This document shows, one piece after another, positions 1 to 8,300 of a stretch of 51,761 nt of DNA (position 1 is the first letter of the stretch; each line of letters starts with the position of its first letter). The notes below the pieces were generated by a model. The model was not told the origin of the DNA and made no database searches. It saw only the letters and a program-made list of their open reading frames with translations. The stretch comes from Porticoccaceae bacterium. Its GTDB lineage: Bacteria; Pseudomonadota; Gammaproteobacteria; Pseudomonadales; GM7GCV1. The stretch covers positions 1 through 51,761 of the forward strand of contig JAYQPQ010000004.1 in the NCBI GenBank assembly GCA_038145405.1, read 5' to 3'. Both the position numbers and the translations under genes were made by a program.

Positions 1-46
1 GCTCAGCCACAGAGGTCCGAGCGTTATCGCTTTTACTATGGTTCAT
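1..46 (-). CDS. 5' end of a gene running off the window (MNHSKSDNARTSVAE...); possibly a paralogous TonB-dependent receptor
   Basis: ATG at 46 preceded by a GGGGG SD-like run. Same ATG-AAC start context and homologous leader/promoter as the receptor gene starting at 3481. The product is inferred from context only. Confidence 0.55.
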   Translation of the reverse strand, partial: MNHSKSDNARTSVAE

Positions 47-262
47 TTTCAACCCCCTAAGGTGAAATGAGTGGTGTTAGAGTCCATTCCTTTTTTGTAC
101 TGAAGCATTCCCGGAGGAATGCAAAGCACCAAGTCCCTTTCGGATACACCAGACGGCCGCCAGCACAGACTGACAGTGTGGATGCATCAGAAAAGAACCG
201 ATAAAACAGAAGATCGCAGGCGAGAGAGTCGCAATACGTTAGGGCGTATCGGACGTGGAGGA

Positions 263-304
263 GTGCATTGTTAAGAGGAAAAGTTTGCCCTCTTAAAAAT
301 GAAC
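263..304 (-). promoter_or_regulatory. Conserved 5'-leader hairpin, copy A
   Basis: Minus strand GTTCATTTTTAAGAGG-loop-CCTCTTAACAATGCAC forms a 16-position stem with two U.C mismatches; homologous to 3688-3726. Confidence 0.65.
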
Positions 305-355
305 TGCAGCGACGCCTTTCTTGTTTTATCCGGCTTTCTGCTTAAGCAGCATCAA

Positions 356-407
356 TGAACTAAATAGTTCAGGGGGCAATTTACCCCTCCTTTTTACGCC
401 CTGTCAA
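356..407 (-). promoter_or_regulatory. Sigma70-type promoter with a palindromic operator at the start site, copy A
   Basis: TTGACA (407-402), N18, TAAATT (383-378), N6, then the dyad TGAACTATTTAGTTCA (371-356). Same layout at 3770-3824. Confidence 0.7.
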
Positions 408-464
408 CCGCTAATGGCCAATCAGTCATCTACGGTTGGCGCACCCGCTGAGCAGGTAACGGGC

Positions 465-493
465 AAAAAAAAGCCAGCCCCTGAGGGCTGGCT
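465..493 (-). terminator. Intrinsic terminator of the TonB-dependent receptor gene
   Basis: GCCAGCCC/GGGCTGGC 8-bp stem, 4-nt loop, followed by T8 on the minus strand, ~25 nt after the stop. Confidence 0.9.
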
Positions 494-517
494 GAATCTT
501 GGGGTTCAATCTTCTTA

Positions 518-3481
518 TTAGAAGCTTTTGCTCAGTTCGACGCGAACCATGCGACCGAACAGATTGTGGACACCAGTATCCACGACACTGCTGCCATCGA
601 TCACGATGGGAGGATCCTTGTCAGTCAGGTTTTGCACGCCAAGGCTGGCGCGAATACCGGACAGCAAGCTGCCGTCATCCGGCGTCTGGTAGGCCACCGT
701 CAGATCGAAGGTCGTCCAATTATCGATTTCGACATCGCCAGAGGGATCATCCGGGTTGGTATAGCCGCCCTCGGTTTTGGCTGACAGGGAAGCATTCCAG
801 TTGTCGTAGCCCCAGGACAAACGATTGGTCATGCGCAGGGAGTTCTGCCAATCCTTGATATCCAGCACATTGAAGTACTGGCCACCCTTCTCCAGGGTGC
901 GCTCCAGGGTGAGGATTTTGGCGACGTTGGAACTGGCGCGGAAAATCCCCCAGTCGTTGGCCCAGGTGTAGGAAATCTGGGTGTCCACACCGTTCTGGTG
1001 CACCGAGCCGACGTTTTGCAGACCCACTTCAATCTCGGCAACGGCAAGGCAGTCAAAACCGTCGCTACCGTTGTAACGCGTGCCGGGATAGCGCAGGAAG
1101 TTGAGGAACTCCGGAGCATAGGTCGAGGTATCGTTCTCCACGCAAGTGGCGGGCTGCGTAAAGGTAGTGATGTAGGGTCGATAGCGTGCAAAGTTCTCCG
1201 GTGAAGTAAAGGCGCTATCCGAGTTCGGCAGGTTCTGAATGCGATCCTCGTACTCGATATCGTAGTAGGTCACTTGCAAATCCAGCCCCTCCACCTGGTA
1301 GGGTGAATATTCGACACCCACGCTCCAGTTAGTTGAAGTCTCTGGCCCTAAGGTGGGCGTACGGCCGCTGCGGCGCATGACCATGATCTCGGGATCACCC
1401 GGCGTCAGTTCACGGCCAACCGTGAGTCCGATAGCAGGATCCACATCAAACCAAGAGGCGCTCATAACTGAATTCACACCCGGATTCACCTGCTCGACCG
1501 TCGGCGCTTTAAAAGCCGTGCCATAGCTGGCGCGCAAGCTCAGGTCGTCATTGACATCCCAAACCACGCCCAAGCGCGGATTGGTGGTACCGCCAAAATC
1601 GGAGTATTCATCGTGGCGCGCCGAGAGGTTAATGGCGAAACGCTGCACGCCCGGCATCGCATTGGCATCGCCAATCAGCGGGATGTAGATTTCCCCAAAA
1701 TAGGAACCTACTTCGCGGCCGTAGGTGGTATCGCGCAGCACGTAGTCTTCCAGTCCGTTGGTCGGGTAGTAGCGTACCGTCTGGTTCAGCCACAGCCAGT
1801 GGTTCTGGTCCATATACTCGGCGCCGATAGAACCGCGCACCGTGCCCCCTGGAAGATCCATCAAGGGTCCTTCAAGACGGGTGACAAAGCCGCTTTGCCA
1901 CTGATCGCCGGCTCGGTAGGTGTCGCCGATCAGGCGCTCGCTCAGATCTTCCGGATTCTGGCCGCCCTGGATATAGGGGTTATACCACTCGGGATTTCCA
2001 CCGCGGGGATTGCCGTTTCCATCGACGCCAATTTCCAGGTAATTGCGATAGCCGACCGGCGTGCCAGCCGGGTCGTGGCGCAGGGCCGCGTTGTTACCCT
2101 CGGTACGGCAGATGTCGCAGCCCTTAGTGCTACCCCAGGACACCGAACTGGTCCACTGAAACTCACCAATATCCCAAATCAAATCCACATAGTGGTTCTG
2201 TGTGCGCGCATAGTTGCGTGCCTTGGCCGGCAGACCGTTGTCACTCATGTTGATGTTGATTGTGTAGCTCGAGCCCGCGCGACGACCTTCGAACGCCACC
2301 AGATCGGCCATGTAGTAGGGGCTGTACTCGGTGACAGTGATGGTGCGCGTGCCGAAGGTCAGATTGCGACTCTCGCGTTTGCTGACCATACCGGTATATT
2401 CCAGCCGGATATCATCGGCGACCTGGAAGCCGGCGCTGACAAAGGCGTTGCGGCGATCCGTGGCGGCCCGATACAGCGCGTAGTCGGCATCGTCCACAGT
2501 CACTACTGGAGCAGCCAGTACCTCGGCCAAGGTCGGGCGCGTAACCGGTGTGGTCAGGGTATAGACCGTAGCATCGTCCGGGTCGATATGGGTGGTGACC
2601 GTTTCACCCGTCCAGCCGGGTGCGGGATTACCGTACAGAGTGTTCCCCACGCGAATCAGGCCATTGGGGCCTGGGTAGCCATTGCCGCGAATGCTGTCAT
2701 TGCGACCGCCGTAGCGAGTCAGATCAGCACTGAGGAAAGGGCTTTCGCTCATGGGCATGGAAGTGGTGTATTCCTTGGACAAGCCAACCATGATGTTGGC
2801 GTTATCCCAGACATGGCCGGCAACGAGCTCGACCTTGCCGATGTCGTAGGGACCACTCTGACCGCTGACCTGCAGATCGAGACCTTCAAAATCGCGGCGC
2901 ATACGGAAATTCACCACGCCGGCAACGGCGTCGGAACCGTAAACCGAAGAGGCACCATCCAAAACCACTTCCACGCGCTCAATGGCGGCGAAGGGGATGG
3001 CATTGGGATCCGGCGCGATCGAAGACACGCCCTGACCCGCCATGCGGTGACCGTTGAGCAACTGCAACGACGCATTGTCGCCCAGGCCACGCAAGTTCAG
3101 GCCGCCGGCACCCGAAGTGTTGCCACCGTCGCCACTTGCTACGCCGGAATCCATCTGCGAGCCCTGCGGCAGGGTGGAGATAATTTCTGCCGCGGCCCGC
3201 ACTGGGGACTCCAGCAGATCTTCACGGGAAAGATTCAGCACCTGCGAGCCGACCGGTGCCACGCCGCGTAGGCCGGTACCGGTCGCGGTGCCCTGGACCA
3301 CGATTTCTTCAATGGATTGACTGCTTTGCACATCTTGCGCCTGCAACTGCGCTGCCGCATGGCTCAGAAGCACAGTGGCAGAAGCAAGCCATATCGCTTT
3401 TTTTAGCTTTCCCGCAGCGCCAGTTCCGAAATAGTCGGTAACCTGCGAGCTGAAAATAGCCGCATTTTTCCTAAGGTTCAT
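518..3481 (-). CDS. TonB-dependent outer-membrane receptor, substrate unknown
   Basis: Signal peptide, TonB-box-like IEEIVVQGT, plug motifs NLRGLG and IERVEVVLDGASSVYGSDAVAGVVNF, barrel motifs, C-terminal Phe. Confidence 0.95.
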   Translation of the reverse strand: MNLRKNAAIFSSQVTDYFGTGAAGKLKKAIWLASATVLLSHAAAQLQAQDVQSSQSIEEIVVQGTATGTGLRGVAPVGSQVLNLSREDLLESPVRAAAEIISTLPQGSQMDSGVASGDGGNTSGAGGLNLRGLGDNASLQLLNGHRMAGQGVSSIAPDPNAIPFAAIERVEVVLDGASSVYGSDAVAGVVNFRMRRDFEGLDLQVSGQSGPYDIGKVELVAGHVWDNANIMVGLSKEYTTSMPMSESPFLSADLTRYGGRNDSIRGNGYPGPNGLIRVGNTLYGNPAPGWTGETVTTHIDPDDATVYTLTTPVTRPTLAEVLAAPVVTVDDADYALYRAATDRRNAFVSAGFQVADDIRLEYTGMVSKRESRNLTFGTRTITVTEYSPYYMADLVAFEGRRAGSSYTININMSDNGLPAKARNYARTQNHYVDLIWDIGEFQWTSSVSWGSTKGCDICRTEGNNAALRHDPAGTPVGYRNYLEIGVDGNGNPRGGNPEWYNPYIQGGQNPEDLSERLIGDTYRAGDQWQSGFVTRLEGPLMDLPGGTVRGSIGAEYMDQNHWLWLNQTVRYYPTNGLEDYVLRDTTYGREVGSYFGEIYIPLIGDANAMPGVQRFAINLSARHDEYSDFGGTTNPRLGVVWDVNDDLSLRASYGTAFKAPTVEQVNPGVNSVMSASWFDVDPAIGLTVGRELTPGDPEIMVMRRSGRTPTLGPETSTNWSVGVEYSPYQVEGLDLQVTYYDIEYEDRIQNLPNSDSAFTSPENFARYRPYITTFTQPATCVENDTSTYAPEFLNFLRYPGTRYNGSDGFDCLAVAEIEVGLQNVGSVHQNGVDTQISYTWANDWGIFRASSNVAKILTLERTLEKGGQYFNVLDIKDWQNSLRMTNRLSWGYDNWNASLSAKTEGGYTNPDDPSGDVEIDNWTTFDLTVAYQTPDDGSLLSGIRASLGVQNLTDKDPPIVIDGSSVVDTGVHNLFGRMVRVELSKSF

Positions 3482-3687
3482 TGTTTACCCCTCTTGAAAG
3501 GTTGCTATTGGTTGGACCCAATCAAAGGAGGGTGAAAAACGATCACGCCAAAGCATGCCTATCCGGAATGCCGCACGCACGCAAACACCGACCCCCTTTG
3601 AAAGGGATCCTAGATGCAAGAGAAATAAACCAAATGAAGAGAGGCTGGCGAGTTGCAACCAGCCCGTGGCCAGTCGAACTCCGGGAA

Positions 3688-3726
3688 GTGCATTGTTAAA
3701 AAGAAAGTATCTTCTTAAAAATGAAC
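3688..3726 (-). promoter_or_regulatory. Conserved 5'-leader hairpin, copy B
   Basis: GTTCATTTTTAAGAAGA-loop-TCTTTTTAACAATGCAC; pairing is retained relative to copy A through a G-C to A-U change and a G-C to G.U change. Confidence 0.65.
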
Positions 3727-3769
3727 TCGTACGAAGCCATCCAACATTCAGCATCCCTACCCGCATCGC

Positions 3770-3824
3770 TGAACTAACTAAATAGTTCAAGCTTCAATCT
3801 ACCCCCCTAGCAAGTGGCTGTCAA
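3770..3824 (-). promoter_or_regulatory. Sigma70-type promoter with a palindromic operator, copy B
   Basis: TTGACA (3824-3819), N17, TAGATT (3801-3796), N6, then TGAACTATTTAGTTAGTTCA. Confidence 0.7.
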
Positions 3825-3850
3825 CCTGGAAAGGGTGCGAAGCTGTACTC

Positions 3851-4174
3851 CTACCATATCCCGGTATCGATCATGAAACGCAGGGCGCCGTTGCGACTGG
3901 TAACACGGAAGGTATAGCTGTGCAGGGAGACATCCTGGCCGCGCTCACCCAGCGCGGCGGTAACACGACCATCGACGGCCTGCACCAGCGATTCGAGATT
4001 GTTGACTGGAGCCGACAGCAGCAGAAAGGCGTGCTGGCGCTCGAACAGGCTGTTGCGAAAACGGAAGCGTCAATTTGCGTCGACGACGGCCAGACCCAGT
4101 GGTAATTCATTCATCGCCTGCGCAATGCGGTTTTCGGTGATCTTGTCGCCCGCAACGCCAATGATGGAGGCCAT
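3851..4174 (-). pseudogene. Small PAS-like protein interrupted by an in-frame TGA (4072-4070)
   Basis: Manual translation gives MASIIGVAGDKITENRIAQAMNELPLGLAVVDAN*RFRFRNSLFERQ...MIDTGIW*. LPLGLAVVD-x-x-x-R-F-x-F-x-N is a typical PAS N-terminal pattern; SD-like AAGGG upstream. Confidence 0.55.
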
Positions 4175-4315
4175 GTCTGTCAGCCCTTACTTAAAGCTGT
4201 TTTGATACTAATGCGGCTCAGCCTAACAGTATTAGCGGGGTGAAAGCGGCATATGCCACTAGCGGAGTGGGGCCTCAAGGCCGCTATAATGCGACCTCTT
4301 TTACGAGCGATTCCC

Positions 4316-5336: not shown

Positions 5337-8300
5337 ATGAACTGGCTGCGGGTGTTCCTGGGCAACCACGTACTGGCAAACCTCATGTTTGCGCTGGTAC
5401 TGGTGCTTGGTATCGCTGTCTTTGCGGTGATGCCACGGGAACGCGATCCGGAGATCAACTTTAACTGGATCAATATTCTCACAATACTGCCAGGCGCATC
5501 GGCGGGCGATGTGGAGAAGCGCGTCACGGATCCTCTCGAAGATGCCATCAGTCGTGCCGTGCAGGACATCGACTTCGTTTCCAGCACATCGCGGGAGAGT
5601 GTGTCGACCATTCTGGTGCGCTTCAATCAGCTCGACGAGCGAACCTTCGACAAGCGCATGGCTGATCTGCGTCGGGAAATACAGAACGCCTACACCGATC
5701 AACTTCCGGATGAAGCAGAAGACCCCTACATTCTGGAAATTACCAGTTCCAACGGCTTTCCGACGGCCACCCTGGTAGCGCAGGGACTCGGCACCGACGA
5801 GTCCTTCCGCCGACAGGCACGCAACATCAAGGACGAACTAGAGCGCATCGACGGAGTGAACACAGCCGATGCCGTCGGCCTTTACGAACCCGAACTTCAC
5901 ATTCTCTTCTACCCTGAGCGACTCGGTGGATTGGGCATTGGGCCCGCTGATCTAGCAGACACGGTGCGCAGCTATTTTCGCGACGCCTCGGTGGGTGATC
6001 TAGCCACGGATGAAGGCAAGTGGGTGGTGCGCCTGCAAGGCACCGATGCGGATCCCGCCGTACTGGCTACCTACCCGATCGTCACCGCTCAGGGAGTCGT
6101 GCCCCTGGGCAGCCTGGCAGACATCATTACCACCACGGAAGAGCCTGAGCAGCTGGTGCGCTTCCAGGGCACACCGGCAATTTCCTTCACCATCACCAAG
6201 GACTCCAATACCAATATCCTGGATCTGCTGGACCGCATTAACCAGTACATCGAGGACAAAAACGCACTGGCCGACACCACGGGCATGCGCCTTTATCTGA
6301 TCGACGACCAGACCGTATCGACGCGCGCTGCGCTCAGCCTGATGCAAAACAACGCGCTTATCGGTCTGGTGCTGGTGCTGTTGGTAACCTGGCTGTTTCT
6401 GGGCAGCCGCATTGCCTTCTTTACCAGCCTGGGCATTCCTTTCACCCTGGCGGGTACCTTTCTTATTCTCAACTCCCTGGGCATGACGCTGAACAACTCC
6501 GTGTTACTGGGGGTTGTCATTGCGCTCGGGATGATCGTCGACGACGCCGTGGTGGTGGTCGAAGCAATTTACTACCGCTTCGAACGGGGCGTTCGCGGCA
6601 TGGGCGCCATTATCGATTCACTGAAGGAAGTCTTCGCACCTGTCACCAGTTCGGTACTGACCACGATCGCCGCTTTCCTGCCTTTAACCTTGTTGCCTGG
6701 CATTCTCGGCGACTTCATGCGTGTGATCCCGCTGACCGTCTGCGCAGCGCTGCTGGTGAGCTTGCTGGAGGCCTACTGGATGCTTCCGGTGCACATTGCC
6801 ATGGGGGAAGAAGAGCGCTCCACCGGCGGTGCTCGTCAGCCCACGCGCTGGAAATTTCTGCAGCCAGTGCAGGCTGCCTGGGCTAACTGGAGATCAGCCT
6901 GCCGCCAATGGCAGAAAACAACGCGCAGGCATCGTTGGCAAGCCATCCACTGGTTGCGCCTGAGCTACACCCGCCTTTTGTTGACTACCCTGCGCAACCC
7001 AGCCAAGGCATCTGCAGCGGTTGCTGGTGTCGTCATGGTGGCGTTGGTTGGCGTGCTGCTGGGCGGCGTCAAAGCCAATTTCTTCGCCGCCGACGCCTTC
7101 CGCATCTTTTACGTCAATCTGGAAATGCCGCGCGGCACATCGCTGGAAGAAACCATTGCCGTGGTACAGCGAGCCGAGCGCGAAGCGCTGAGTCTGCTGG
7201 AAGAGGGTGAGCTGCGCGGTAGCGTGGCCTTTGCCGGGCAAATGTTCACCCAAACCGAGGCGCTGTTCGGCGACAACATCGGCCAGGTCATGGTCAGCCT
7301 TGAACCTCGCCTGCGGGGTGGACGGGAAATGCTGGAGATCAATAATCTGGTCGAATCTTCTCTGGCCAGTTGGAATCTGCCAGGCGAACTGACTCTGATG
7401 CGGGTCGAGGATGGTCCGCCGGTTGCCAAGCCTATTAGCGTAAAGGTGCGTGGCGACAACTTCGAAGAAATTCAGGCGGCCGCAGATGCCCTGGAAGACT
7501 TCATGCGCTCTACCGGGGTATTTCAAAACATCACCCAGGACTTTCGGCCCGGCAACCCCGAACTGGTCCTGCGCCACGACGGCGAAGCCATCCAGCGCGC
7601 CGGCATCTCGCCACTCGCTGTGACGCGTACCATTCAGGCCTATGTCGATGGCGAACTGGTGTCTCAGTACCAGAATAACGGCGAGGAGGTGATGGTTAGG
7701 GTGAAGGCGCAGCAGGACAACCTGGCTGGTATCGACCAACTGCTGCGCGAGACGCTCCCGCTTCCCAGCGGACAGTCCGTGGCGCTGGGTGATTTGGTCG
7801 AAGCTACCTATACCCAAGGGCAGCAGAACATTCGTCACTACAACTTCCGTCGAACCATTACGCTGGAATCCGATATTGATGTCGAGGCGGTGAATACCGT
7901 CAGCGCCAACACCATGGTGCAGGATCATTGGCAGCAGATTCGCGAGCAGCACCCTCAAGTCAATCTGGATTTTTCCGGCGAGCTGGACGATGTCTTTGAA
8001 TCCATTGACGCCATCGTCATCTTGATGGCAGCGGGGTTAGGCTTCATCTACCTGATTCTGGGAACCCAGTTTGGCAGCTACTGGCAACCCTTCCTGATCA
8101 TATTTGGCACCCTACCCCTCGCCATCACCGGTGTTGCCCTGGGGCTGCTGATCACGCGCAACCCCTTCAGCCTTTATACGCTCTACGGCACTGTGGCGTT
8201 GATCGGCATCTCGGTGAACGCTGCCATTGTGCTGATCTCGGCGGCCAACGACCGCATCGAACAAGGCATGAGCGTGTTGCATGCGACCGTCTATGCCGCT

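Follow-up and report, generated by a model that had tools for sequence, protein, structure and literature searches.

The btuB gene, which encodes a TonB-dependent receptor, is preceded by a long structured leader with a cobalamin riboswitch, and the enterobacterial rnc, pnp and ompA leaders are processed by RNase III or stabilized by a hairpin at the 5′ end. Here we analyze two leaders (A and B) located in front of two tandem TonB-dependent receptor genes, gene A and gene B, on the minus strand of a 51 761-nt stretch of DNA from a Porticoccaceae bacterium (assembly GCA_038145405.1, contig JAYQPQ010000004.1, positions 1 to 51 761). This whole stretch, called the window in the following, is the start of a contig in a genome of 1.75 Mb (59% G+C, 105 contigs, 99% completeness). 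A preliminary description of the window, made from the sequence alone, had proposed an undescribed leader RNA common to a receptor gene family. We found that both leaders carry an RNA structure that is specific to the sense strand, conserved in both copies and marked by compensatory changes. This structure, which we call domain 1, is probably a functional and undescribed, and probably lineage-restricted, cis-acting structured leader RNA with a predicted transcription start. For the overall explanation, in which each gene would have its own promoter, a shared operator and a conserved RNA domain in the 5′ untranslated region (UTR) acting in cis, we estimate a probability of about 60%.

A sense-strand RNA fold shared by the two leaders

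Counted from the predicted +1, the 5′ UTRs are ∼325 nt (A) and ∼308 nt (B) long, in agreement with the ∼310–325 nt of the preliminary description. Folded as a whole in sense orientation, the leaders reach z-scores of −5.5 and −5.3 (0 of 100 shuffles each), compared to −1.3 and −0.7 in antisense orientation. As background we drew 46 windows of 335 nt at random from this genome, which gave a mean z of −0.36 (sd 1.13, minimum −3.4). Since the z-scores of the split halves differ (3′ halves: −0.77 for A and −2.5 for B), the folding signal can be placed in the 5′ half of the leader. Domain 1 comprises the first 155–173 nt of each leader, and its antisense z-scores are −2.0 (A) and −1.2 (B), with 200 shuffles for each value in both orientations. 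The two copies, folded separately, give the same architecture, in which a long bulged stem (P1), beginning with GAUGC and ending with GCAUC, closes a junction with two hairpins (H1 and H2):

181–353, minus strand: domain 1 of leader A, P1 closing a junction with H1 and H2 (z −4.35 sense; 199 bits with the covariance model R1, see below)
3613–3767, minus strand: domain 1 of leader B, same P1/H1/H2 architecture (z −5.3 sense; 166 bits with R1)
262–305, minus strand: H1 of leader A, stem of 17 positions, two of them U·C mismatches (z −4.8, 0 of 200 shuffles)
3687–3727, minus strand: H1 of leader B (z −5.1, 0 of 200 shuffles)
228–254, minus strand: H2 of leader A, hairpin of 10 bp, one C bulged (z −4.8)
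3650–3681, minus strand: H2 of leader B, hairpin of 14 bp, one C bulged and three of the pairs G·U (from fold and comparison)

The long hairpin of the preliminary description corresponds to H1, and its reported features hold: both U·C mismatches are kept, and the changes from G-C to A-U and from G-C to G·U are confirmed. H1 is A/U-rich, its basal arms are identical in both copies, and 35 of its 41 positions agree, compared to 52–58% identity in the aligned leader outside H1 (17 gap columns). The gap-free block at 181–211 and 3613–3643 is likewise real and represents the U-rich 3′ strand of P1. H2, a second hairpin absent from the preliminary description, has changed more: in 4 of the 10 leader-A pairs both bases are different in copy B and still pair.

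We compared the two copies of domain 1 by running RNAalifold on a plain, unedited MAFFT alignment. A common fold was recovered: the consensus has 47 pairs, none of them broken in either copy, with both sides changed in 11 and a single side in 4. Its energy is −38.35 kcal/mol for the sense strand versus −17.55 kcal/mol for the reverse complement; the good folding of the sense strand only is due to the many G·U pairs. In 300 column shuffles the mean energy was −9.5 kcal/mol (sd 3.0, best −20.6 kcal/mol) with at most 8 compensatory pairs, and the real alignment has a z of −9.5. When the pairing partners were shifted by 1–3 columns, 40–48% of the cells paired and 0–2 compensatory pairs were left. 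Thus compensatory changes, by which the conserved structure of riboswitches is recognized, are present here between n = 2 sequences, a number that gives R-scape-type covariation no power.

As the two receptor proteins are just 64% identical (gene B versus P0004, a 991-aa protein whose start is identical to the 15 visible residues of gene A), neutral positions should be largely randomized, and the retained pairing would therefore reflect selection on RNA structure. One could regard the fold as a relic of the duplication, i.e. as residual ancestry with no present function, given that the genes are tandem paralogues and that no other homologue was found in the sets searched. Yet all 47 pairs hold, 15 of them variable, where neutral DNA would be nearly randomized, and the z-scores of both copies lie below those of all 46 background windows, so that such a relic appears very improbable. 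In addition, the G·U pairs together with the strand asymmetry speak against a purely DNA-level reading. Taken together, compensatory changes combined with strand asymmetry disfavor both a functionless relic and an element acting as DNA only, and in every computational test that we applied to the two paralogous copies the element proved real.

The dimensions of P1 deserve separate attention. It consists of 10+8 pairs in A and 8+14 pairs in B, interrupted by one bulge each, with duplex energies of −28.6 and −29.6 kcal/mol. These values would suit a processing or stability element, in which the near-continuous ∼22-bp P1 is a substrate of the RNase III type, or in which a palindrome that can form a hairpin at the predicted 5′ end (see below) shields this end; domain 1 would then set the half-life of the mRNA instead of sensing a signal. 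The invariant sequence of H1 and its mismatches are left unexplained by this proposal, in which cleavage by RNase III is a conjecture, and we consider it rather unlikely.

Promoters, palindrome and the receptor genes

We scanned the minus strand of positions 1–4300 for sigma-70-like promoters and found exactly two sites, each matching 10/12 and both upstream of the RNA domain, at the places where the preliminary description had put promoters in front of both genes. In both copies a palindrome starts 6 nt past the −10 box:

378–407, minus strand: promoter of gene A, TTGACA-18-TAAATT (10/12 in the scan)
3796–3824, minus strand: promoter of gene B, TTGACA-17-TAGATT (10/12 in the scan)
356–371, minus strand: palindrome TGAACTAnnTAGTTCA of copy A, perfect 7-2-7, TGAACTA-TT-TAGTTCA (the only 0-mismatch match in the 1.75-Mb genome)
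3770–3789, minus strand: palindrome of copy B, TGAACTA-TTTAGT-TAGTTCA, arms as in copy A but 4 nt inserted between them (from the sequence)

The palindrome taken earlier for an operator is found at both copies, perfect in A and with 2 mismatches in B if read in the 16-nt register. Genome-wide, the palindrome has 20 matches at ≤3 mismatches and 4 at ≤2 mismatches. Three of the latter are located upstream of three receptor paralogues, i.e. genes A and B and a third paralogue, C, on a different contig of the same genome (57% identity), where the palindrome lies 48 nt before the ATG. The fourth match (contig C56) is inside an open reading frame of 494 aa and was ruled out as an operator. Because three of the four best matches precede paralogues and the fourth is coding, the palindrome is specific to this receptor gene set. 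Matching the expectations for a palindromic operator, the repeat sits at the start site, and all three intergenic matches at ≤2 mismatches are found at receptor paralogues. Judged by its sequence and location, the palindrome is probably the DNA operator of a repressor common to the three paralogues, with the regulator itself being putative. Alternatively, it represents a 5′-terminal RNA hairpin; as RNA, copy A folds with −4.7 kcal/mol (z −5.5). The upstream region of paralogue C gave no match in the promoter scan. A second palindrome, TACTGA-CTAT-TCAGTA, occurs ∼100 nt upstream of the paralogue C start (locus L004, 1310–1345) and is distinct from the shared operator.

The palindrome also raises the question of a single DNA-binding regulator, which would recognize both the palindrome and the H1 arms (AGTTCATT ... 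AATGCACT), the RNA fold being incidental. Indeed, the palindrome and the 5′ arm of H1 both contain the half-site AGTTCA (the 3′ arm has TGCACT), and the region upstream of paralogue C keeps the palindrome alone. However, the two copies space the H1 arms differently (by 3 bp), and compared with the palindrome these arms have an everted orientation. Pairing in P1 and H2 survives 10 double changes in diverged sequence, which is not required of a DNA site, and the folding signal is strand-specific and G·U-rich. An explanation at the DNA level only is thus quite improbable.

Around these elements the two genes are arranged as follows:

518–3481, minus strand: gene B, TonB-dependent receptor of 987 aa (Plug and β-barrel, from domain matches)
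472–493, minus strand: intrinsic terminator of gene B, strong, 9-bp stem and T8 (terminator scan)
1–57, minus strand: gene A, with a GGGGG ribosome-binding site (53–57), the ATG (46–44) and the first 15 codons, followed by the contig end

As gene B has its own terminator upstream of promoter A, the genes form two separate transcription units. The gene left of position 1 is a receptor, both by its identity to P0004 and by a 3231-nt contig from another sequencing run, which links a gene-B-like stretch to window position 1. The runs containing the stretch are estuary and marine metagenomes, with no RNA run listed among them. In four DNA runs the contigs are identical over the covered leader parts and add no variation. 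Just upstream of promoter B we observed a frame of 107 codons (3851–4174, minus strand) with an in-frame TGA at 4070–4072 (...VVDAN*RFRF...), which is also present in a contig from another run that covers the frame without differences. The match of the frame to PAS_8 is weak and stays below the cut-off (E 0.038), and the frame may be a broken small PAS-like gene.

Downstream halves of the leaders and distribution of the element

The part of each leader between domain 1 and the start codon contains the ribosome-binding site and a short hairpin:

105–122, minus strand: leader A, downstream half, hairpin GCAUUCC-UCCG-GGAAUGC with a perfect 7-bp stem (z −4.3)
3482–3612, minus strand: downstream half of leader B, with the GGGG ribosome-binding site (3488–3491) and the GCAUUCC hairpin (3553–3571) (z −2.5)

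As described before, GGGG and ATG AAC are seen in both copies. The GCAT(T/G)CC hairpin is indeed present in both, with a UCCG loop in A, but its homology is not significant: copy B has one mismatch and a 5-nt loop, so that the loops differ, and simple arithmetic shows that a 7-mer shared by two ∼145-nt stretches should arise about once by chance.

Pairing with the ribosome-binding region was judged against 6000 genomic and 3000 shuffled nulls. In copy B the 3′ strand of P1 can pair with the ribosome-binding site and the AUG over 20 bp (−19.5 kcal/mol, ∼0.001 of nulls). This pairing, the three-way-junction architecture closed by P1 and a position before transporter genes that resembles the cobalamin case of btuB are compatible with a ligand-sensing riboswitch, where the junction is an aptamer for the receptor cargo or a related metabolite; a ligand-stabilized P1 would free the ribosome-binding region, which is otherwise sequestered by the U-rich 3′ strand of P1. 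The homologous pairing of copy A, however, has only −13.3 kcal/mol and is found in 0.12–0.16 of nulls; the junction shows few conserved nucleotides, the element has an extremely narrow distribution and lacks a relative in Rfam, and the ligand is postulated. A riboswitch of this kind therefore seems unlikely to us.

Other ways of control were considered for the same region. For copy A, and for this copy only, the prediction is that the ribosome-binding region pairs with the very 5′ end of the leader (probability ∼0.9). Masking of the AUGAAC start by the 5′ arm of H1 (GUUCAUU) was rejected, as it is not conserved (−16.6 kcal/mol in A; outside the 7 best partners in B). For an attenuator, the terminator scan revealed no intrinsic terminator in leader A. 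In leader B we noticed a terminator-like hairpin (3642–3665, minus strand) with a weak U-rich tail, which overlaps the 3′ arm of H2 and has no leader-A counterpart. A leader peptide was also dismissed: a mechanical 101-aa frame over leader B stands against a corresponding frame of 8 codons in A (by eye), and the indels between the copies are not multiples of three.

To classify the leaders we searched region 1–4300 with the 4227 models of Rfam 15 (E ≤10). Only 7 matches were obtained, all far below the gathering scores and none on the sense strand of 47–407 or 3482–3824; the best-scoring ones fall on the terminator of gene B. The leaders thus match no Rfam family, including cobalamin (RF00174) and thiamine pyrophosphate (TPP; RF00059), whose motifs the preliminary description had not recognized either. 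Literature listings, abstracts and selected passages of PMC11996626 contained nothing on such a leader.

For the search of homologues, a covariance model of domain 1 (R1) was built from the two sequences; it is sequence-biased, and remote homologues could be missed. In the source genome R1 finds only the two copies, so the domain is not a dispersed repeat. Related loci were collected with protein probes of increasing breadth: a single protein gave none, the full alignment gave generic receptors only (22–47% identity; genome and metagenome contigs), and a subfamily-specific sub-alignment gave 8 loci (45–56% identity over the probe segment; GTDB species genomes). The upstream regions of these 8 orthologous loci contain neither the palindrome nor H1. 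This comparison of upstream DNA covers the 8 loci, whereas the closest orthologues come from protein searches: P0002 (84%) as well as P0003 (67%) and P0005 (68%), which share one 798-kb JGI contig. Of the proposed leader RNA common to a receptor family, the structured RNA without an Rfam family is retained, while its sharing within the family is not, since paralogue C and the 8 orthologous loci lack the element. A pattern scan for H1 over all GTDB genomes returned 19 matches in unrelated, mostly AT-rich taxa, which were judged to be chance; 3 of them give partial R1 matches covering H1 only (E 0.08–4.9).

The distant orthologues (L166, L167, L171 and L173; L168–L170 and L172) have conserved upstream motifs of their own. 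One group has the common upstream block CGCAT..GACAAT....TTATGC, and a Pseudohongiella group has a common CCCTTGACAGTATTTGA promoter block with a leader of ∼110 nt.

Several of these results weigh against a functional leader RNA. The comparison comprises just two sequences, both from paralogues in one genome, without an independent lineage. Further homologues, which were expected if the element is shared by a gene family, did not emerge with R1 in 10 other genomes of the family or 150 sampled genomes of the order, nor as a full-length match in 188 loci including the 8 orthologous ones. Occurrence across several lineages, typical of riboswitches, is therefore not seen, with two copies only in all sets searched. 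The leader of paralogue C is unstructured (z −1.3). Moreover, sequence conservation is strongest in a stem and not in the junctions, which is unusual for aptamers; a site in the DNA or gene conversion over a short tract could also account for the conservation of the H1 stem. The downstream halves are difficult to align, and their consensus fold is not convincing (−9 kcal/mol). No shared expression platform was found, and only in copy B does the 3′ strand of P1 pair significantly with the ribosome-binding region. Finally, the transcription start is predicted from the promoter position.

Possible mechanism, ligand and relation to known systems

In the explanation that we favor, a conserved leader RNA acting in cis, each tandem receptor gene would be transcribed from its own sigma-70 promoter, with the palindrome at the start site serving as the operator for a repressor common with paralogue C. 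The first 155–173 nt of the 5′ UTR would fold so that the bulged P1 (∼30 bp) closes a three-way junction with H1, whose basal arms and two U·C mismatches are invariant, and H2, whose sequence has drifted with pairing kept. Domain 1 would then most likely act in cis on the mRNA, i.e. on translation initiation and/or stability. A trans factor (protein, small molecule or small RNA) would bind the invariant H1 or the junction, while switching or cleavage would take place in P1. Our data show the structure, its strand specificity and its conservation in both copies; that domain 1 is transcribed, that it regulates the genes and how it does so, we infer. As far as its sequence can tell, the invariant, mismatched, A/U-rich H1 looks like the recognition site of such a trans factor.

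The gene neighborhood of the receptor family offers a lead for the ligand, though a lead only. A gene for a pyrroloquinoline quinone (PQQ) alcohol dehydrogenase directly follows the orthologous receptor in both distant loci tested (L166, 5803–7695; L171, 5692–7665). At the corresponding place, L167 has a 657-aa frame (5713–7686), a putative PQQ alcohol dehydrogenase. Loci combining the receptor with a PQQ dehydrogenase were observed in Woeseiaceae and other gammaproteobacterial metagenome-assembled genomes, with MFS, AraC-type or LysR-type genes nearby. The source genome itself contains nine PQQ-dehydrogenase-like open frames (contigs C2, C6, C13, C23, C67, C73 and C75; L196–L201). Searching it for PqqC gave no match, and the control genomes were equally silent. 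It would be attractive, if distinctly improbable, that domain 1 represents the aptamer of a hitherto undescribed class of riboswitches sensing the receptor cargo, e.g. PQQ or a compound of the lanthanide-chelate type. To our knowledge, neither of these has a known RNA sensor.

If real, an undescribed structured leader RNA would join the few RNA elements that control genes for TonB-dependent uptake, in this case in an uncultured, streamlined, estuarine gammaproteobacterium that is studied through sequence only. The narrow distribution limits its general importance. With ∼160 nt, a mismatched helix that does not vary and a stem model already defined, domain 1 is a small, concrete target for synthesis and probing, and could give access to the cargo of a receptor family that is linked by neighborhood to PQQ dehydrogenases.

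Compared with the cobalamin (RF00174) leader of btuB and the TPP (RF00059) leaders, the present ones are similar in being long structured 5′ UTRs before TonB-dependent receptor genes, with a multi-stem junction closed by a stem that could compete with the ribosome-binding region. They differ in architecture, conserved nucleotides and distribution, and have no match to these models at E ≤10. To the rnc, pnp and ompA leaders there is no sequence relation, and processing is conjectural in our case; the likeness consists of a long imperfect duplex and a possible 5′-terminal hairpin in the 5′ UTR. The orphan riboswitch candidates and rare structured non-coding RNA motifs from comparative genomics (motif surveys of the Breaker type; PMC7266159 and PMC11109978) have many representatives in different lineages, in contrast to the two paralogous copies in one species described here, but their structures, too, are intergenic, conserved and located in front of a single class of genes.

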